From Candidatus Rokuibacteriota bacterium (GTDB taxonomy: Bacteria; Methylomirabilota; Methylomirabilia; Rokubacteriales; CSP1-6), in assembly GCA_016184305.1 (NCBI GenBank), contig JACPCX010000026.1:1-26111 (forward strand): a stretch of 26,111 bases of DNA, written 5' to 3'. The translations under genes were made by a program, and so were the position numbers. The notes under the pieces were generated by a model. It did no database searches, was not told where the DNA came from, and worked only from the letters and a program-made list of their open reading frames with translations. This document shows, in pieces, positions 3,071 to 20,291 of the stretch. How positions within the stretch are numbered: position 1 is the stretch's first letter; every line of letters starts with the position of its first letter.

Positions 3071-3112
3071 CGCTCCCTCCTGTCAGGTGAGCCGCGCGCC
3101 CGAGGTCAGCGC

Positions 3113-3362
3113 TCAGCCGAGGCGTTCGATCCCCGGGAAGCCGTCGAAGCCGGGATCGAAGCTCAGTATGCGGCCGATGCCCTCTCGTTCCATGACAGCC
3201 ACGTGGATAGCGTCCCGGGCCGACAGGCGCCGGCTCCCGAGGACGATGCTGCGCGCGCGCCACGGCGGGGAGATCGACCGGGAAGACCTCGTCCACGAGG
3301 CCCAGCAGGGCATCGAATGCCGGCTGGATCGCGTCCAGACGGTCAATGGCGACATAGCGATG
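3113..3362 (-). pseudogene. vapC: 3' remnant of a VapC/PIN toxin (5'-truncated, frameshifted at ~3262)
   Basis: HRYVAIDRLDAIQPAFDALLGLVDEVFPVDLPAV, then in another frame RARSIVLGSRRLSARDAIHVAVMEREGIGRILSFDPGFDGFPGIERLG (RDAIH and SFD PIN motifs); begins abruptly next to the neighbouring stop codon. Confidence 0.85.
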
Positions 3363-3364
3363 GA

Positions 3365-3775
3365 CTACTTCTTCTTGAGGAACTGAATACCCCGCAGGAT
3401 GGCGACGCCCTTGCCCTTGTTGGACACGTCGAGCACGATCCCCTCCTGGTGGAGCCAGCTCTCACCCGTCTTCTTCTCCGCGACCTTGTCCCCGTACTTG
3501 TAGGTGAAGGTGCCCTTCGTCACCCAGAGGATCTCGGTGGACCCCACCTTGAAGTCCTTCACGGCGGCCCCGGGATCCATCTCGAACTGAATGAGCTGGG
3601 CCTTCTCGATCCCCGGGAAGCCGGGCTCGAAGGTGTTGACCACCGCGAAGCGCACCGGCTCCTTCTTTGCCTTCTCCTGCTTTGCCTTCTCCTGCGCGAG
3701 CGCGGCGCCCCCCAGCATGACGCCCAGGGCGGACACGAGCATGAAGCCCACGGCCACTGTCCAGATCCTTCGCAT
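3365..3775 (-). CDS. Secreted/periplasmic cupin-fold protein
   Basis: Start at ATG 3775 after GAGGAG; signal peptide MRRIWTVAVGFMLVSALGVMLGGAALA|Q; beta-rich cupin pattern (EILWVTKG..GESW..N.G....L) with few His ligands. Confidence 0.75.
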   Translation of the reverse strand: MRRIWTVAVGFMLVSALGVMLGGAALAQEKAKQEKAKKEPVRFAVVNTFEPGFPGIEKAQLIQFEMDPGAAVKDFKVGSTEILWVTKGTFTYKYGDKVAEKKTGESWLHQEGIVLDVSNKGKGVAILRGIQFLKKK

Positions 3776-3862
3776 TGGGCTCTCCTCTCTCCTCGATGGT
3801 CGGTTGCCTCGCAGCCGGTCGGCGCCGCTCACCGACGCCGCCGCGTTCGCCACGTCGCGCAA

Positions 3863-3891
3863 CGGATAGCGCCTGGCCCGGGGGGTGTCAA
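3863..3891 (-). promoter_or_regulatory. Putative sigma70 promoter for the cupin gene
   Basis: TTGACA-17 nt-TATCCG; in repeat copy 2 the -35 is GTGACA. Confidence 0.5.
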
Positions 3892-4012
3892 CCCCGGATT
3901 TCGCCCCCGCAGGTTGACGGGGGGCGCGATCCTCGGAAGGTGCCGCGCTCGGTTCAGCACAAGATCCGCCAAGGCCGTGTAGACTGGCCTCGGCTGTCGC
4001 GTAGGTCCTTGC

Positions 4013-4051
4013 GTGCCCGTAGCTCGGCTTGATAGAGCATCGGCCTTCTAA
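4013..4051 (+). pseudogene. 5' half of tRNA-Arg(UCU), ending at the last base of the anticodon loop
   Basis: GTGCCCGTAGCTCGGCTTGATAGAGCATCGGCCTTCTAA matches 5888..5926 with 3 changes; the sequence after it is unrelated. Confidence 0.9.
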
Positions 4052-4294
4052 AGTGCCTAGACGCGTGTTGCGTGGTGTCCCTCTCGCTCACGCGGCGGAG
4101 CTATCGCCCTCTGTTCACGCGGCCTTCCGCTGCGATTGGCGAGACAGCGCCATGAGCGGGAGCGATACGGAGGGGGCGCAAGCGAGTCACCGCACTTCGA
4201 GAAAACTTCGCGTCGCTTTGCTCCCGGTTCCGACTGCCGCTCGCTCATTGCCCGCCGTAGACCATCGCGTAAACCTCTGAGCGGCCCGAGGCTT

Positions 4295-4486
4295 GACCGC
4301 CGGTTGTGCGCCAGCCGGTCGCGAATTCTGCCCTCTCCGGTGACCCTCAACGCACCGGGATCGGGTGCGCGCCGGACACTTGCAGCCGATCGATGGTGCA
4401 AGCGTAGCCAACTCTGGCCCCCTTCGGCGGCGCGCGCCCCGTCCGGGGTCCCCGTCCCCATGACATGATCTCCCAAATTCGGACGC
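4295..4486 (+). mobile_element. Orphan IS110/IS1111-like right-end non-coding region (candidate bridge/seek RNA), no transposase
   Basis: Shares AGCGTAGCYAAC and (A/T)TGACA-N10/11-ATTCGGACGC with the mini-IS110 at 5359..5592; stacked stems at 4299-4318, 4336-4376 and 4380-4401; left boundary approximate. Confidence 0.5.
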
Positions 4487-4525
4487 TGGCCGCGCCAGGA
4501 ACCACAGGAGCCGATGCCACAGTGC
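4473..4525 (+). repeat. ~52-bp direct repeat copy A (CCARATTCGGACGCTGGCCGC...CGATGCCACAGWGC)
   Basis: Aligns to 5579..5630 with a handful of differences. Confidence 0.9.
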
Positions 4526-4566
4526 TGCCGGGTGCCCTGCGCCGCGCCCCGGGACAGGCGCGCGCC

Positions 4567-4594
4567 ATGGTAATCCCGCATCGCGCCCTGTCAA
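4567..4594 (-). promoter_or_regulatory. Putative sigma70 promoter with no obvious downstream gene
   Basis: TTGACA-16 nt-TACCAT overlapping the DUF5615 stop codon. Confidence 0.5.
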
Positions 4595-4965
4595 CGCCGT
4601 TTCCTGCGGTCGCGCGACCCGCCTGCCCGGCGGGTGTCCTCGACGGTGATAATCGCCCCAGCCTTGGCGTCGGACTCGAGGCTCGGCAGGACGCGCTCGA
4701 GGATGGCGTCAACGAGCTCGATGCGCGAAGAGGAGAGGCGCAACGAGATGAGCGACGGCGCCCGTCCTCCTGCGAACGCCAGGATCGCCGAGAAGCGGAG
4801 ATCCTGGGTGAGGATGACACGGTCGTCCTGGATGGCGCGGGCGACAATGGCCTCGTCCGCCGAGGTCGCCGGCATGATCTCGTTGATGCGCGCCACGTCA
4901 TGGCCACGGGCCTGCAGAGATCGCACGGTGCGCGGCGAGATGTGCATGTCGGCGAGGAGCCTCAT
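4591..4965 (-). CDS. DUF5615 family PIN-like toxin (C-terminus possibly clipped)
   Basis: MRLLADMHISP...GHD...DEAI...VILTQDLRF; ATGA overlap with the DUF433 gene. Confidence 0.88.
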   Translation of the reverse strand: MRLLADMHISPRTVRSLQARGHDVARINEIMPATSADEAIVARAIQDDRVILTQDLRFSAILAFAGGRAPSLISLRLSSSRIELVDAILERVLPSLESDAKAGAIITVEDTRRAGGSRDRRKRR

Positions 4966-5180
4966 GCAATCGCCGAGGTCGTCTCACTCGCCAGCCAGGC
5001 GCCGTACTTGGCGGCCTGGTAGACGTCCTCCTTCTCCAGTTCGGGATACTCCTTGACAATCTCGTCGGCCGTGTAGCCGTCGCCGAGCAGCTTCAGCACA
5101 AAGTCCACCGTGATGCGCATCCCGCGGATGGTGGGCTTGCCATCACAGACCCGAGGGTCAACGGAGATCCGGTCCAACAT
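4962..5180 (-). CDS. DUF433 family antitoxin
   Basis: RISVDPRVCDGKPTIRGMRITV...EIVKEYPELEKEDV. Confidence 0.93.
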   Translation of the reverse strand: MLDRISVDPRVCDGKPTIRGMRITVDFVLKLLGDGYTADEIVKEYPELEKEDVYQAAKYGAWLASETTSAIA

Positions 5181-5186
5181 GCTTCC

Positions 5187-5215
5187 AGGTTACTCGGTAC
5201 GAGGTGAATCGGCAA
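5187..5215 (-). promoter_or_regulatory. Leaderless sigma70 promoter with small operator-like palindrome
   Basis: TTGCCG-17 nt-TAACCT-6 nt-ATG; CTCG-gta-CGAG at 5193..5203 in the spacer. Confidence 0.65.
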
Positions 5216-5358
5216 CACCGGTGCATCGGCGATATCCGGCCCGGCCACGGGGGCGCAAGCCGTCCGCCGCTGCGATAGGGGCGCACCCCGGCGCCCGCCT
5301 TATCCCTCGGAACCTCCCGCCCGCGCGGGTCACCCGGAGCGCACCACGTCGCGAGCGT

Positions 5359-5592
5359 AGATGTCATGAAGCGGCTGGCCTCTCGCTCGACGTGGTGGCA
5401 TAGACTGCCCCACAAGAGCTACTCGCGCTCAACGGCGCAGAGAGGAGAGGCCAGCCATGGACCATATTGGCGTCGACGTCGACAAGAAGGGAGCGTAGCT
5501 AACACAATGGGTGTCGGGGGGCGGGTGCGGCCGAGGCCGGGGCGGCGCCGTCGGGTGGGGCGCCGCTTGACACAACAGCCAGATTCGGACGC
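5359..5592 (+). mobile_element. Internally deleted mini-IS110 (left end + first codons of transposase + right end)
   Basis: GAGGAG RBS then MDHIGVDVDKK at 5457 (IS110 DEDD N-terminal GxDxxK motif); perfect 12-bp IR 5373-5384/5445-5456; outward-facing TTGACA at 5567-5572; ends approximate. Confidence 0.7.
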
Positions 5593-5692
5593 TGGCCGCC
5601 CCAGGAGCCCAGGAGTCGATGCCACAGAGCCGATGCCACAGAATGTCTCGATGGCCTCTGAACTGATGTCCGAGCTGTAGATGATGCCACAG
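5579..5692 (+). repeat. ~52-bp repeat copy B plus two further GATGCCACAG motifs
   Basis: GATGCCACAG at 5618, 5632 and 5683 (also 4513). Confidence 0.9.
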
Positions 5693-5926
5693 TCGGCGCC
5701 GCTCACCGGCGCCGCCGCGTTCGCCACGTCGCACAACGGATAACGCCTGGCCCGGGGGGTGTCACCCTCGGATTTCGCCCCCGCGAGGTTGACGGGGGGC
5801 GCGATCCTCGGAAGGTGCCGCGCTCGGTCCAGCACAAGATCCGCCAAGGCCGTGTAGACTGGCCTCGGCTGTCGCGTAGGTCCTTGCGCGCCCGTAGCTC
5901 AGCTGGATAGAGCATCGGCCTTCTAA
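5692..5926 (+). repeat. Direct repeat copy 2 (~235 bp): upstream region and 5' half of the intact tRNA
   Basis: Aligns to 3818..4051. Confidence 0.95.
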
Positions 5927-5964
5927 GCCGAGGGTCGCAGGTTCGAATCCTGCCGGGCGCGCCA
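5888..5964 (+). tRNA. tRNA-Arg(UCU)
   Basis: 77 nt; acceptor stem GCGCCCG/CGGGCGC, D arm GCTC/GAGC, anticodon stem TCGGC/GCCGA with loop CTTCTAA, GGTTCGAATCC T arm, encoded CCA. Confidence 0.98.
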
Positions 5965-6014
5965 TTGTCTTTCAGGGACTTCCACCGCGGCGCCTTCCAC
6001 GCCGCCAGGCCTGA

Positions 6015-6080
6015 GTGCCGGTTTTAGTGCCGGTTGCGCCCTCGGGATTGCTCTTCGCTCGCCGGCGGGCGCGCATGCGC
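6015..6080 (-). pseudogene. Extreme 3' remnant of a tyrosine integrase gene, with tandem GTGCCGGTT repeat
   Basis: 6015 GTGCCGGTTTTAGTGCCGGTTGCGCCCT aligns to 7453 GTACCGGTCTTGCTGTCGGTGGCGCCCT (EGATGTKTGT vs KGATDSKTGT). Confidence 0.65.
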
Positions 6081-6095
6081 GCACGGGAGAGGCCA

Positions 6096-6554
6096 TCAGG
6101 CTCGTCGGGGCCCTCGGGGCTTGAAGAGCATCTGGACTCTGCCGGAGCGGGCGATCCTTGCAATGAATGGCGGCTCGTGTCGGATGGAAAACCTGGCGAT
6201 GTGGGGCAAGGCGGCCACCACGGTCGCCGCCATCTCGGGACCAGTCAGATCGCCACGGGTCAGGACGAACGCACGGACGCCACCGGCGATGAGAGCCGCC
6301 TGTTCAGTGAGGCGGTACCGGATCTTCGCGTCCTTGGTGATTACCGCCCATCCCCGCCGCCCGACTTCAGGAAGCCACTCCTCGTCTCGAGCGTCCTGAG
6401 GGAAGTGGTCATCGTGGACGTGGACCTCGATACCCTGCATCCGGAGGGCGTCGGGGATGGCGTGTCGGCCGAGGGACCGATCGATGAAGAGAGGTGGCGG
6501 CTGGCTAGGCGGCTTCGAGCGGGAGCTCGCAGCGGAGGGCTTCCTGGATCTCAA
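6096..6554 (-). CDS. VapC45-like PIN toxin
   Basis: FIDRSLG...HDDHF...DEEWL...GWAVITKDAKIRY; overlaps the 3' end of the antitoxin. Confidence 0.88.
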   Translation of the reverse strand: MRSRKPSAASSRSKPPSQPPPLFIDRSLGRHAIPDALRMQGIEVHVHDDHFPQDARDEEWLPEVGRRGWAVITKDAKIRYRLTEQAALIAGGVRAFVLTRGDLTGPEMAATVVAALPHIARFSIRHEPPFIARIARSGRVQMLFKPRGPRRA

Positions 6555-7155
6555 GGGGACCTCGTTCGTAGTCCCGGGCGAGGTCGTCGACCGATTCCCC
6601 CGCCTTGAAGCGCTCCGCGATCACTGCCGTTGCGATTCCCGTCCCCGTCAACACCGGGCGTCCAAAGGAGACGAACGGATCGATCACGATGGCCCTCGGC
6701 TCTTCCGGCTCGCGCTTCCTGATGAAGGGAAAGAGGCGAATGGGCAGCCCCTTCAGATCCCAATCGATGCGGCGGAGGTAAGCCCTCACCAGCTCGCGCA
6801 TCGCCAGCTGCCCGTCCTGCGTCAAGTTGATGAGCAGGCCCGCCTTGTCGATGAAGAGATCCAGGCCGTCTGTCTCGAACCGGTATTCGGCGAGCGGATG
6901 CCTGGAGCTGTAATGCCGTTCGAGGAACGCCACCGCCGAGCGCACCTTGCGAAGGGAGATCTCGTGCTGGCGACGGATGGCCTCGAGGATGTGCGCCTCC
7001 ACCAGATTGACGAAGGACAGCACCGGCCACTCTGGCTGGGGTAGGCGGATGACGGGTCTGAAGAACTCCCGGCCCCTGGCGGTCGGGTAGAACCGTCCGA
7101 GAACCCACGACCTCAGGGTCGCCGTGGGCATCCGAAGATACCTTGCCGCGTCCAT
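6505..7155 (-). CDS. VapB45/Rv2018-like antitoxin (HTH + DUF433); true start probably further upstream (~7224-7232)
   Basis: AARYLRMPTATLRSW, LSFVNLVEAH, IDPFVSFGRP..GTGI...RFKAGES; the family-like GRDPREIPAY lies in frame upstream of ATG 7155. Confidence 0.88.
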   Translation of the reverse strand: MDAARYLRMPTATLRSWVLGRFYPTARGREFFRPVIRLPQPEWPVLSFVNLVEAHILEAIRRQHEISLRKVRSAVAFLERHYSSRHPLAEYRFETDGLDLFIDKAGLLINLTQDGQLAMRELVRAYLRRIDWDLKGLPIRLFPFIRKREPEEPRAIVIDPFVSFGRPVLTGTGIATAVIAERFKAGESVDDLARDYERGPLEIQEALRCELPLEAA

Positions 7156-7392
7156 GAGCCCGTAGGCGGGGATCTCCCTGGGATCCCGGCCCGTCTCGAT
7201 CGTTGGATGCCTCTGAGCCTTGATGATGACATTCCCCCTGGCTGGAGTTTACCTCAAGAGGCTCTCGATCGATCCAAGGGCCGATGCTGTGGCACCGTCA
7301 TGCGCCCATCCGGGCGACCTGGCCTTGAGCCACCTCACCAGAACCCAGCAGCCCAGAAGGTCGCCTCGGCATCGCAGAGGGCTCCAGCGGGG

Positions 7393-7408
7393 TGCCGGCC
7401 GCGCCCCA
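7393..7408 (+). repeat. Possible degenerate tRNA 3'-end fragment (att scar)
   Basis: TGCCGGCCGCGCCCCA vs tRNA end TGCCGGGCGCGCCA; ~45 bp from an integrase 3' end, like the real tRNA (~50 bp). Confidence 0.4.
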
Positions 7409-7439
7409 TCGGCTCTCAGGCCTCCGTAGCGCATCACCG

Positions 7440-7832
7440 TCATTGGGACGTGGTACCGGTCTTGCTGTCGGTGGCGCCCTTGCGTGCGGAGTTCGCGAGC
7501 CGCTCGACTGCCGTCCGCATGTGGTCCGGGCTCAGGTGCGCGTACCGCTGGACCATCACCTGGGTCTTCCAGCCTCCCGCCCGCTGTACCGTGTAGAGGT
7601 TCACGTCGGCCATCGCCGGCCGCTCGCGCTGGATGAGCTTGGGGCAGCATTCCTGTCGCGCCTTGCGGGCGTCTCGCACCTCGGCGCGCCTGGCCTTGTG
7701 CTCCTCCCCGGCGGCCGGCTTCGAGTCGCCGCTCGGCTGCCGGTGGTCGTGGCCCAGGGAGCAGGCCCACCGGATCCACCATTGCCCGTCCCGCTCGAAC
7801 ACGCCGCTGACCTTCGGCCCCCGTGTCGTCAT
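7440..7832 (-). pseudogene. Tyrosine integrase with in-frame internal deletion
   Basis: N-terminal arm-binding-like GVFERDGQWWIRW is joined at ~7620 to C-terminal AMADVNLYTVQRAGGWKTQVMVQRYAHLSPDHMRTAVERL; core-binding domain and HxxR missing; GGAGG RBS. Confidence 0.85.
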
Positions 7833-7883
7833 CGCGCCCTCCGCGTCCCCCGCCGTCGCGCGGCCGGGAAGAAATCCCGCCAG

Positions 7884-8366
7884 TCACTGGTCACGCGTCC
7901 CGCGCCGGCGCGTCCAGAGCCGTGGGTCGAAGCTGAAGGGCCGCGGCGTGCCGACCCGGACCGTCCGGAAGGCCGGGTGCAGCGGGTTGACGACGAAGTT
8001 CCGCTCGTGGGGAATGATCGCGGATGGCACGGCGAGCACCGCGGTCTCGCGCGCCCGCGCCCAGGCCGTGCCGAGGTCGGTGACCGCGGCCGGCGCGGGC
8101 ACCGACCGCCAGTCCGGCGGCAGCTCGCGGGCGGAGACGTCGCGGACGCGCAGGGTGTCCGGGATCTCCGCCGGCGTGGCCATCCACTCCCCCTGCACGT
8201 GCTCCACGTCCGCGTGCACCAGGATCTCCAGCGCCGCCAGCGAGAGCGTGGCGGAGGCGTAGACGAGGGGCACCCCGGGCCAACCCCACCGCCCGCCCCA
8301 CTGGCGCGCGCCCTCGCCATCGAAGGCGACATGGGGCGCGCGCGCGAGTCGCCAGACCCGGGTCAG
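7884..8366 (-). CDS. RES-domain toxin (NAD+-consuming family)
   Basis: VWRLA..FDGEGARQWGGRW..VYAS..LAALEILVH..LAVPSAIIPHERNFVVNPLHP..FDPRL; start placed at the CTGA overlap. Confidence 0.92.
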   Translation of the reverse strand: MTRVWRLARAPHVAFDGEGARQWGGRWGWPGVPLVYASATLSLAALEILVHADVEHVQGEWMATPAEIPDTLRVRDVSARELPPDWRSVPAPAAVTDLGTAWARARETAVLAVPSAIIPHERNFVVNPLHPAFRTVRVGTPRPFSFDPRLWTRRRGTRDQ

Positions 8367-8818
8367 CTGTAGATCCCGCGCGCCAGCCGCTGCAGGATCG
8401 TCTCGACCTCGCGCGCCCCGACCTCGGTGGAAAGCAAGTGCAAGGGCGCCGCGCCGGCGAGCGCGCGGTTGGGAGCGCGCAGCCACCCCGCGGCGCGCTC
8501 CGGCGCGCCGAGCACCTCCTCGGCGAGGGCCCCGATGCGCGCGAGCCGCAGCAGCCGATCGGACTCGTCGGGCGGCAGACGCCGCGCGAGCTTGCGGCGA
8601 GCCAGGGTGCGCCTGGGGATGCGCAGGACGGCGACGACCTCGTTCCCCGTCAACGCGTAGCGCGCCACGAGCGTGGCCAGCGCCGCATACGGCAGCCCGG
8701 CGCGGACCCGTTCGTGCAGCGTCTGGTAGGTCGCCGTCACCTCGCGCATTCCGAGCGATCGGCCCATCACCGCCGCCATCTGCCGCGCCGTCACCGCCCC
8801 CGCCGCCGAGCGTGCCAT
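8363..8818 (-). CDS. Xre/MbcA/ParS antitoxin
   Basis: VRAGLPY, IPRRTLARRK, ESDRLLRLARI, WLRAPNRALAGAAPL, VETILQRLARGIYS. Confidence 0.93.
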   Translation of the reverse strand: MARSAAGAVTARQMAAVMGRSLGMREVTATYQTLHERVRAGLPYAALATLVARYALTGNEVVAVLRIPRRTLARRKLARRLPPDESDRLLRLARIGALAEEVLGAPERAAGWLRAPNRALAGAAPLHLLSTEVGAREVETILQRLARGIYS

Positions 8819-8855
8819 CTGGCCTCAGCATACGGCCAGATGGCCGACCTGGCAA
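8814..8855 (-). promoter_or_regulatory. xre-res promoter with inverted-repeat operator
   Basis: TTGCCA-17 nt-TATGCT-8 nt-ATG; perfect 11-bp IR GCCATCTGGCC/GGCCAGATGGC (8814-8824/8834-8844) brackets the -10. Confidence 0.8.
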
Positions 8856-19496: not shown

Positions 19497-20291
19497 ATGA
19501 CCGTCCGTCGCCTCGCGTGGGCGCTCGCGCTGCCGATCGCCCTCTTCGTCGTCTGGGACCTGGCCGTCCGGCAGCGATGGGTGGTGGAAGGCATCATCCC
19601 CGCGCCGGCGCAGGTGGCGGCCGCCTGGTACACGTGGATCTTCGGGGCGGCCACGACATCGCTCTCCCCCTACTCGGGCACGTGGCTGGCGAACGTGGCG
19701 CACTCCACGCGGCGGGTGATCGAGGGCTTCCTGCTCGCGGCCGCGCTGGGGATCCCGCTCGGCGTGTTCATCGGCTGGAACCGCGCGGTGGCGCGGGCGG
19801 TGGACCCGTCCATCCAGATGCTGCGCCCGATCCCCATCACGGCGTGGCTGCCCTTCGCCATCGCCGTCTTCGGCATCTACGACGCGAGCGCGCGCTTCTT
19901 GATCGGGCTGGGCGCGTTCTATCCGATCGTGGTCAACACCACGCATGGGGTGCGGGACACCAATCTCCTGCTGCTGCGGGCGGCGCGCATGCTCGGCGCC
20001 GGCCCCGCCGCGGTGCTCTTCAAGGTCGTCTTCCGCTCCGCGCTGCCTTCGATCTTCACCGGCCTGCGCCTCGGGATCGGCGTGGCGTGGACGGCGGTGA
20101 TCGTGGCCGAGATGATCGCGGTGAAGTCCGGCCTCGGCTACGTGCTGTGGGACGCCTACTACGTGGGACGGATGGACATCTGCGTGGCCACGATGTTCTC
20201 GGTGGGGTTGCTCGGCTTTCTCTCCGACCAGGTGATCCTGCGCGCCTCGCGGGTGGCGCTGCGCTGGCGCGCCCTCGAGGCGCACGGCTGA
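19497..20291 (+). CDS. NitT/TauT-type ABC permease
   Basis: LRPIPITAWLP, AARMLGA, ALPSIFTGLRLG, IVAEMIA. Confidence 0.93.
   Translation: MTVRRLAWALALPIALFVVWDLAVRQRWVVEGIIPAPAQVAAAWYTWIFGAATTSLSPYSGTWLANVAHSTRRVIEGFLLAAALGIPLGVFIGWNRAVARAVDPSIQMLRPIPITAWLPFAIAVFGIYDASARFLIGLGAFYPIVVNTTHGVRDTNLLLLRAARMLGAGPAAVLFKVVFRSALPSIFTGLRLGIGVAWTAVIVAEMIAVKSGLGYVLWDAYYVGRMDICVATMFSVGLLGFLSDQVILRASRVALRWRALEAHG

Follow-up and report, generated by a model that had tools for sequence, protein, structure and literature searches.

In the window analysed here, a 26,111-nt stretch of Candidatus Rokuibacteriota DNA (contig JACPCX010000026.1 of assembly GCA_016184305.1), two sequences of about 40 bp bracket a DUF433/DUF5615 toxin-antitoxin (TA) pair. 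We found that these 40-mers belong to a family of longer interspersed repeats, hereafter called units. The explanation that best covers the observations, and that we consider probable as a whole, is that the paired 40-mers are unit tails and that an insertion sequence (IS) of the IS1111 type, hereafter IS-A, is programmed to insert at the unit head. Our analysis demonstrated the unit family and its limits, the structure of IS-A, the covariation of its guide with its flank, and the lack of any IS right end in the window. The source metagenome-assembled genome (MAG; G000) comprises 3.2 Mb in 239 contigs and is 88.8% complete; the window is its contig C156. The features on which the argument depends are as follows.

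4400-4522, plus strand: unit I, of body subtype I, with the head AAGCGTAGCCAAC at 4400-4412 and a tail at 4477-4522 ending in CGATGCCACAG (nhmmer E=1.5e-21).
4591-4965, minus strand: DUF5615 (PIN-like) toxin gene (Pfam PF18480, E=1.1e-19).
4962-5180, minus strand: DUF433 antitoxin gene (Pfam PF04255, E=2.8e-23), with a 4-nt overlap with the toxin start.
5353-5360, plus strand: GAGCGT + AG, the putative left half of the IS-A target with the core dinucleotide; the same 8-mer heads the repeat unit.
5361-5490, plus strand: IS-A left-end fragment, with the subterminal inverted repeat ATGAAGCGGCTGGCC, a ribosome-binding site, an ATG at 5457 and 11 transposase codons.
5491-5627, plus strand: unit II, of body subtype II, with the head GAGCGTAGCTAACAC at 5491-5505 and a tail at 5583-5627 (nhmmer E=4e-20).
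5628-5692, plus strand: tail duplicate region, consisting of a 14-nt tandem tail copy (5628-5641), a spacer and a further GATGCCACAG at 5683-5692.

Exactly two copies of ATTCGGACGCTGGCCGC were present in the window (4477-4493 and 5583-5599), and no match was obtained in 100 dinucleotide shuffles. By BLAST, the co-oriented copies 4477-4522 and 5583-5627 were 91% identical over 46 nt, and both 40-mers finish in the shared end ...CGATGCCACAG, at 4522 and 5627. This 11-mer occurred three times in the window against 0.04 expected, the third copy (5631-5641) lying within the 14-nt duplication of the unit tail. A reading made from the sequence alone (the sequence-only reading) had stated that two ~40-bp copies enclose the DUF433/DUF5615 pair, which the exact-match, shuffle, BLAST and Pfam results confirmed, and that the sequences just inside them differ; this is true, and the differing sequences are subtype-specific unit bodies.

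The 40-mer proved to be the conserved 3' part of an interspersed intergenic repeat of about 125 nt, the unit, in Candidatus Rokubacteria genomes. Elsewhere in G000, BLAST located it on contigs C123, C38, C239, C114 (twice), C18, and C11, always accompanied by the ~80 nt upstream and always with unrelated sequence beyond. With an nhmmer profile made from seven unit copies and a cut-off of E<=0.01, G000 yielded 9 units; C25 and C7 gave 2 weaker matches, and 28 further distinct units came from the fetched loci of the relatives G001, G002, G003, G010, G029, and G033. In total 37 distinct units were aligned, after eight rows repeating the window locus (G003 and re-fetched copies; G003:C22 is 100% identical over that locus) had been dropped. 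The flanks vary before the head and beyond CACAG. Between these limits the unit begins with the head G(A/G)G(C/G)(G/A)TAG-YCRACAT, continues with a GC-rich body of three subtypes and then with (T/G)TGAC(A/G), CCAGAyTCGGACGCyGGCCGCCCCAGGAGCC and an optional extra CCAGGAGCC, and closes with GATG(C/G)CACAG. The lengths of 23 cleanly delimited units ranged from 98 to 138 nt, 22 of them falling within 114-138 nt. A strict head pattern matched none of the copies since both window heads deviate from it, and it was kept out of the counts. At loci with several units, the units were co-oriented in all 13 cases, at a spacing of 0.1-7 kb; tandem units were found in L032, L033, and L034, where the second unit retains its own head, and tail duplications like that at 5628-5641 also occur in C38, L031, L033, and L034.

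Sought in the genome and its relatives, the 40-mer therefore recurs, also beside other cargo, and is not confined to a local duplication. A simple local duplication or chance is scarcely credible as the source of the two window copies. The tRNA-upstream region is indeed duplicated separately in this area (234 bp, 95% identical), but the shuffles did not reproduce the match, the unit stands on seven other G000 contigs and in many relatives with flanks that differ each time, and units I and II are of different body subtypes. No structured RNA was recognized over 3950-5750 (no Rfam match at E<=1), and no consensus fold was obtained among 20 of the 37 units, for which RNAalifold gave 4 invariant pairs at -1.1 kcal/mol.

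The only IS110-family DNA in the window is 5361-5490, which by sequence comparison is the left-end stump of IS-A, with 80-94% identity to left ends present in many relatives. Positions 5457-5489 encode MDHIGVDVDKK, the start of an IS110-family transposase, and the stump of ~130 nt breaks at AAGAAGG, after codon 11. The stretch 5353-5490 matched dozens of sites at 75-94% in 38 of the 61 related genomes, a tally obtained with a query that also contained unit II. Full copies of IS-A (L041, L036, L014, and others) are ~1.42-1.57 kb long and encode a protein of 347-352 aa with the domains PF01548 and PF02371 (E=3.7e-16 and E=9.9e-24 on the full copy L041:1605-2648). They carry 15-bp subterminal inverted repeats (ATGAAGCGGCTGGCC and GGCCAGCCGCTTCAT) with terminal extensions of 7 nt on the left (AGATGGG) and 3 nt on the right (ACA/AGA), and ~280 nt of non-coding sequence separate the transposase stop codon from the right end. 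The IS1111 group is described as having subterminal inverted repeats (11-13 bp or more), asymmetric extensions (left 6-7 nt, right 3 nt), and a long non-coding guide region after the transposase gene (PMC11187229). In domains, inverted repeats with extensions and downstream guide region, IS-A agrees with this group in every sequence-level criterion examined and can be classed with it on that basis. IS-A relatives were also very abundant in one groundwater community, since the summed contig depth over the left end (5340-5513) was 30-200x that of the flanks in four groundwater runs (X1-X4).

The two 40-mers had originally been taken to adjoin "two IS110-like right ends". The IS-A right end (...TTGACACGGCCAGCCGCTTCATACA) is absent from the window, where the single match of its pattern is the left-end inverted repeat on the minus strand, and the unit bodies, which fill the proposed right-end positions 4400-4486 and 5491-5592, could not be aligned with either end of IS-A (local scores 21-30); the label is thus unsupported, and the candidate identity of the unit as an IS-A right end was rejected. 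None of the 37 units stood directly after a tblastn match of three IS110-family transposases, in loci chosen by left-end or unit matches. A collapsed junction of right and left ends (GGCCAG...CTGGCC) was also considered as an origin of the unit and rejected, the resemblance covering only 6 nt. Nor did anything indicate that the repeat is itself a mobile-element end, as had been suggested.

By comparison of flanks, IS-A would land at GAGCGT-AG-YCRACAT, which forms the unit's 5' head and precedes the 40-mer by ~85-110 nt. Judged by eye, a T precedes AG at 22 of 23 distinct IS-A left ends, and the left flank reads GAGNNT at 15 and GAGCGT at 8 of these 23; GAGCGT-AG makes up the first half of the unit head. 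At most right ends the sequence continues with A(C/G)A-AG-YCRACAT..., in which the second half of the unit head can be recognized. At 4 of the 24 distinct right ends (G000:C7, G002:C40, G006:C81, and G009:C301) a headless unit follows immediately, and several other right flanks resemble diverged units below the profile threshold. In the downstream non-coding region, the 9-10-nt segment right after GGGTGAGCGCG is the reverse complement of the copy's own right flank and was taken as the guide. Guide and own right flank agreed at 9 of 9 positions in 15 of 28 distinct copies (14 of 27 without L090, which comes from the unpublished genome G025) and at a minimum of 8 of 9 in 20 of 28, compared with 9 of 9 in 10 of 624 pairings with the flanks of other copies, these pairings being limited to guides that differ at 3 or more of 11 positions. 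Reprogrammed guides fit their own unusual flanks, as in AGGACTTCC with GGAAGTCC, CAATCGTTCC with GGAACGATT, and TGTCCTTCC with GGAAGGACA. Such covariation is the signature of a putative seekRNA or bridge-RNA type of targeting with natural reprogramming, as described for IS1111 elements (PMC11187229), and the recombination core appears to be AG, as for ISPpu9 (PMC12288879). For the left target, the segment GC(A/G)TAGATGG of the non-coding region resembles the left junction, but five copies compared by eye gave no clear covariation.

We propose that the IS-A guide, complementary to AAG-YCRACAT, would direct insertion into the unit head, and that recombination at the AG core would leave occupied sites reading GAGCGT-AG-[IS-A]-AG-YCRACAT.... 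The circle junction of the element would read ...CTTCATACA-AG-ATGGGATG... and, as we read it, would create a promoter-like pair, TTGACA-17 nt-TAGATG; a junction promoter has been reported for ISPpu10 (PMC12288879). The idea of a recurrent programmed target, already put forward in the sequence-only reading, thus held as regards an RNA-guided target of the IS1111 type but not as regards its place, insertion being ~85-110 nt upstream of the 40-mer and not at its edge. A separate observation concerns the copies L011/L041 (after 2925) and L089, which belong to different families in G001 and G060 and are among those whose guide does not match the flank: directly past the right end they share ~60 homologous nt, AGCGCGGYACG...CCAGAAACTGG, which suggests an extra 3' module on some IS-A copies.

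The stump in the window may go back to an insertion in a unit head and a subsequent deletion, internal or adjacent, or else to insertion of a partial element. Breaks of independent stumps were compared at window 5480-5498, L036 2288-2424, L022, and L023. The window stump breaks after AAGAAGG and that of L036 after AAGAAGGGAAG, within 4 nt of each other, with L022 and L023 nearby; AG flanks the stumps of both the window and L036, the latter being inverted and abutting a unit tail. The closeness of the breaks may reflect a recombination hot spot, or else a pseudo-site or mobile partial element such as has been described for other IS110 loci (bioRxiv 10.64898/2026.08.14.744561).

Several observations weigh against the view that unit heads are programmed insertion sites of IS-A. 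The window stump is followed by a complete unit with its own GAGCGTAG head, which simple insertion with internal deletion does not yield. A unit recognized by the profile follows only 4 of the 24 right ends, and most of the others share the 10-15-nt head alone, so that the whole unit may not be the target outside this family. In 8 of the 28 copies the guide matches the flank poorly (4-7 of 9). The unit lacks a consensus fold and an Rfam match and is present in only ~10 copies per genome; the co-orientation of units (13/13) and the presence of TA modules (4 of ~12 loci) are explained only loosely.

A rival explanation takes the units for non-autonomous modules of IS110-type loci, like MITEPpu9 (ssr9) of ISPpu9 or the non-coding repeat units of expanded IS110 loci; they would be bounded by AG and moved or duplicated by the IS-A recombinase via half-matched sites, so that unit-bounded DNA could travel as partial circles. 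The units indeed begin right after ...GT-AG and end in ...CAC-AG; tandem units or tail duplications exist in L032, L033, L034, C38, and at window 5628-5641; units follow the IS-A right end in the 4 of 24 cases given above; the window and L036 stumps break within 4 nt of each other with AG on both sides; and IS-A fragments adjoin TA modules at the window, C239, and G002:C183. Other IS110 elements, moreover, are documented to form modular circles and to recombine at half-matches (PMC12288879; bioRxiv 10.64898/2026.08.14.744561). Against these points, the unit ends are unlike the IS-A donor ends, the flanks after CACAG hold no target-like consensus, the second tandem unit retains its own head, which is not predicted, and the same TA pair occurs without units in G001:C233. 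We consider this explanation unlikely. The comparison with MITEPpu9, a miniature inverted-repeat transposable element (MITE), gave a similarly divided result: AG stands at both unit boundaries, and boxes resembling the IS-A ends are absent, though the parent IS may be a different one from outside the sample.

The DUF433 and DUF5615 genes are small and adjacent, overlap by 4 nt and carry both Pfam domains, which agrees with a predicted type II TA module; the pair is antisense to units I and II. Units have TA modules between or beside them in the window, C114 (HepT/MNT), C239 (ParE), and G001:C150 (Unstab_antitox), that is, in 4 of ~12 unit loci examined, and units also flank DHDPS, TauE+PNP, GYD, and PIF1-helicase genes. 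Thirteen of 17 neighbouring Pfam-supported genes were antisense to the unit as oriented here (by eye), so the co-orientation of units may merely follow gene direction. A counterpart of the window TA block (4631-5194), 92% identical, lies in G001:C233 with the surrounding ~1.5 kb free of units, and the ParE block of C239 recurs in G002:C183 without a unit, adjoining 60 nt of inverted IS-A right end. The unit-TA-unit arrangement was therefore rejected as a conserved mobile block. The new cassette system that the sequence-only reading had envisaged fared no better, given this unit-free copy of the TA pair, the other genes beside units and the attC features that the units lack.

The order in C239 is the same: a unit, an antisense ParE TA module, ~210 nt, GAGGAT-AG and 60 nt of the IS-A left end. 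The whole replaces ~420 nt; G002 and G003 have an intact crotonase gene, whose 5' third is part of what was replaced. The like order in the window and C239 would indicate that in each an IS-A landed in a unit head upstream of a TA module and lost part of its length later. Direct contact of IS-A fragments with TA modules was thus seen at the window and C239, and also at G002:C183. In our proposal, units and TA modules would co-occur because both collect in accessory, rearrangement-prone DNA beside tRNA-Arg. No unit-to-unit joint was found over 3600-6200 in the Logan contigs of four runs from one groundwater study, which cannot show rare circles. A single joint, 4215->5887, present in one contig with a 24-nt side and 38 foreign letters, was rejected as an excision product, since it matches the tRNA upstream region of a G002-like relative.

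A more far-reaching form of the module explanation has IS-A-type recombinases acting on AG-bounded, non-autonomous units by half-matched guide pairing, with DUF433/DUF5615, HepT/MNT, and ParE modules moving as partial circles. Were it true, it would give Rokubacteria an RNA-guided counterpart of integron cassettes, but we think it quite improbable. That IS110 loci capture cargo was published in 2025-26 (PMC12288879; bioRxiv 10.64898/2026.08.14.744561), and a cassette reading would in any case no longer be categorically new.

The possibility that the units are attC-like sites of an integron-type cassette array, a cluster of attC sites lacking integron integrases (CALIN), with IS-A belonging to the IS1111-attC group, was also weighed. 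An attC site has complementary R''(RYYYAAC) and R'(GTTRRRY) end boxes and a conserved imperfect hairpin. Such an array would fit the co-orientation at 13 of 13 multi-unit loci, their spacing of 0.1-7 kb and the TA modules between them. Full-length integron integrases above the curated cut-off were detected in 16 of the 61 related genomes (G001, G002, G006, G016, G024, G026, G047, and others), and in G006:C78 two tandem units lie ~700 nt from the intI start. Yet inspection of the alignments showed that the unit ends are not complementary and contain no RYYYAAC...GTTRRRY pair: the head has a word that fits RYYYAAC at 6 of 7 positions, without a GTT partner at the tail. No hairpin is conserved across the subtypes. 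Of 12 intI loci, a single one (L199) has units within 1.5 kb, two of the 12 being from unpublished genomes (L197 in G025 and L205 in G012), and no units lie in the 4 other extended intI flanks. BLAST self-comparison of five intI-flanking regions (5-13.5 kb) revealed no repeated attC-like sequence, and the cargo beside units includes housekeeping-type genes of 1.2-2 kb. With no end pairing, no shared fold and no consistent link to intI, the attC identity was rejected, and we hold it to be very improbable. One further locus bears on the same question from the other side: G000:C229 (L196; spans 5908-7056, 6318-6381 and 6493-6780) holds a 5'-truncated integron integrase (TIGR02249 positions 65-160, 122 bits) fused in one open reading frame to a ChsH2-like gene, and this fragment directly adjoins a unit-like fragment. 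Close by are a second element of the IS110 family, of 371 aa, and an Unstab_antitox/ParE pair.

Repetitive extragenic palindromic (REP) sequences and their mosaic arrays (bacterial interspersed mosaic elements, BIMEs) are imperfect palindromes of 20-40 nt with a GTAG head and a high copy number, and they flank a REP-associated tyrosine transposase (RAYT) gene. GTAG does occur in the unit head. However, the units measure 114-138 nt in ~10 copies, and the RAYT gene of G000 is flanked by another repeat, so that a REP of the RAYT type was rejected. This single Y1_Tnp (RAYT-like) gene, on C13 (L073), lies within an inverted repeat unlike the unit (GGGGTCAGGTCTTGCA...; 20 nt, GGGGTCAGGTCTTGCAATCC, at C13 957-976 and 1937-1956). 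The repeat also forms a hairpin pair on G000:C7 (~19705-19760), which points to a separate family of the REP/REPIN type. Because the unit failed the REP/RAYT and attC tests and lacks the end boxes of a MITE derived from IS-A, it is best called a new repeat family serving as an IS landing pad.

The remaining features of the locus belong to its context.

3818-4051, plus strand: half tRNA duplicate, a 95% copy of the tRNA-Arg upstream region with the first 39 nt of the tRNA.
4052-4399, no strand assigned: spacer X, matched by neither Pfam nor Rfam; its part 4154-4335 has one paralogous stretch, ~79% alike, in G003:C118.
4523-4630, no strand assigned: C186-like fragment, 81% like the promoter/5'-untranslated region G000:C186:8602-8691.
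5692-5964, plus strand: second tRNA-upstream copy, then an intact tRNA-Arg(TCT) at 5888-5964.

The window thus runs from a cupin gene through the half-tRNA copy, spacer X, unit I, the C186-like fragment and the TA pair to ~170 nt of further sequence, GAGCGT-AG, the IS-A stump, the complete unit II, the tail duplication with its spacer and tRNA-Arg; the GATGCCACAG at 5683-5692 abuts the start of the second tRNA-upstream copy. Spacer X was considered as an IS remnant or a gene and rejected, having no Pfam match and a single paralogue. The word promoter for the C186-like region reflects our reading of a TTGACA-type box. The half-tRNA duplicate (3818-4051) is context and lies outside the repeat. 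The 234-bp duplication to which it belongs (3818-4051 against 5692-5926, 95% identical) ends exactly after the anticodon loop, CTTCTAA|AGTGCC. This junction is conserved in L053 (G002:C174; 1246-1393 and 6900-7049), where the pseudo-half and the intact tRNA are 5.5 kb apart, compared with 1.6 kb here. The arrangement resembles an old insertion or rearrangement that struck the anticodon loop and brought its own 5' half, and the intervening content differs among members of the genus.

Other parts of the region differ between assemblies or are mosaic as well. At 4631/4632, the junction of the TA block and the C186-like fragment, 89 additional nt are present in G003:C22 and in the Logan contigs of all four runs and are missing from G000, so that the DUF5615 gene's 3' end differs between assemblies. 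To the left of the locus, a PIN fragment (3110-3364) resembles C16:875-1131 at 93%, and the cupin gene with a spacer (3365-3897) resembles C87:17354-17871 at 91%; the break falls at 3365. On the 3' side of the tRNA, all on the minus strand, are a PIN_10 gene (6096-6554), an HTH_66+DUF433 gene (6505-7155), a weak remnant of a tyrosine integrase's C-terminal part (7440-7832; PF00589, E=0.014), and a gene with a RES domain (7884-8855); the stretch 6096-8855 looks like a decayed island.

Taken together, IS-A and the units offer a natural IS1111-type example, in an uncultured phylum of soil and groundwater, of a guide that co-varies with its insertion site over at least 21 guide variants, and they define a repeat family, hitherto undescribed, that acts as the landing pad of the IS. 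Our literature search for work linking Rokubacteria, insertion sequences and repeats found none. Units and IS stumps break MAG assemblies and mimic IS ends, so their recognition should aid annotation, and the naturally reprogrammed pairs of guide and target could be used for engineering seekRNA or bridge recombinases. The finding adds a new example to a known kind of mobile-element targeting and reveals no new mobility mechanism.

Among known systems, attC/CALIN arrays resemble the present loci in having co-oriented repeats of ~120 nt between small genes, TA pairs included, and in that one IS1111 subgroup targets attC; they differ in that the units have no R''/R' core pair, conserved hairpin or consistent link to intI. 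IS621 lands in REPs of E. coli and has the core CT, compared with AG for IS-A. IS621 and its bridge RNA share with IS-A the RNA-guided DEDD recombinase, the short core dinucleotide and a natural target borne on a repeat, but IS621 belongs to the IS110 group and carries the bridge RNA in its left end (PMC11208160). The elements ISPpu9/ISPpu10 of P. putida come closer, as IS110-family elements that occupy one fixed position of an intergenic palindromic repeat (REP), recombine at AG and, with MITEPpu9 (ssr9), have truncated, modular derivatives adjoining the repeat (PMC12288879). ISPpu9 nevertheless belongs to the IS110 group, without subterminal repeats and with its guide RNA upstream, whereas IS-A is of the IS1111 type; the P. 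putida REPs are 35 bp long in >800 copies, whereas the units measure 114-138 nt in ~10 copies per MAG; and MITEPpu9 has boxes like IS ends, which the units do not (PMC12288879). The expanded cargo-bearing IS110 loci likewise combine IS fragments, non-coding repeat units and cargo at one site, with recurrent internal breaks; the window differs from them in having no intact transposase or right end, no circle seen among the contigs, and repeat boundaries unlike the IS-A donor ends (bioRxiv 10.64898/2026.08.14.744561). The IS1111 elements with seekRNA include ISPa11, which targets a REP, ISKpn4/ISPst6, which target attC, and IS4321/IS5075, which target the Tn21 inverted repeat (PMC11187229). IS-A differs from these in its host, the uncultured Rokubacteria of another phylum, and in its new target repeat; covariation supports its putative guide for the right target only. 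The likeness extends to the subterminal repeats, the extensions of 7 nt on the left and 3 nt on the right, the guide situated downstream of the gene for the transposase, the covariation of guide and flank by reprogramming and the repeated, partly palindromic target (PMC11187229).

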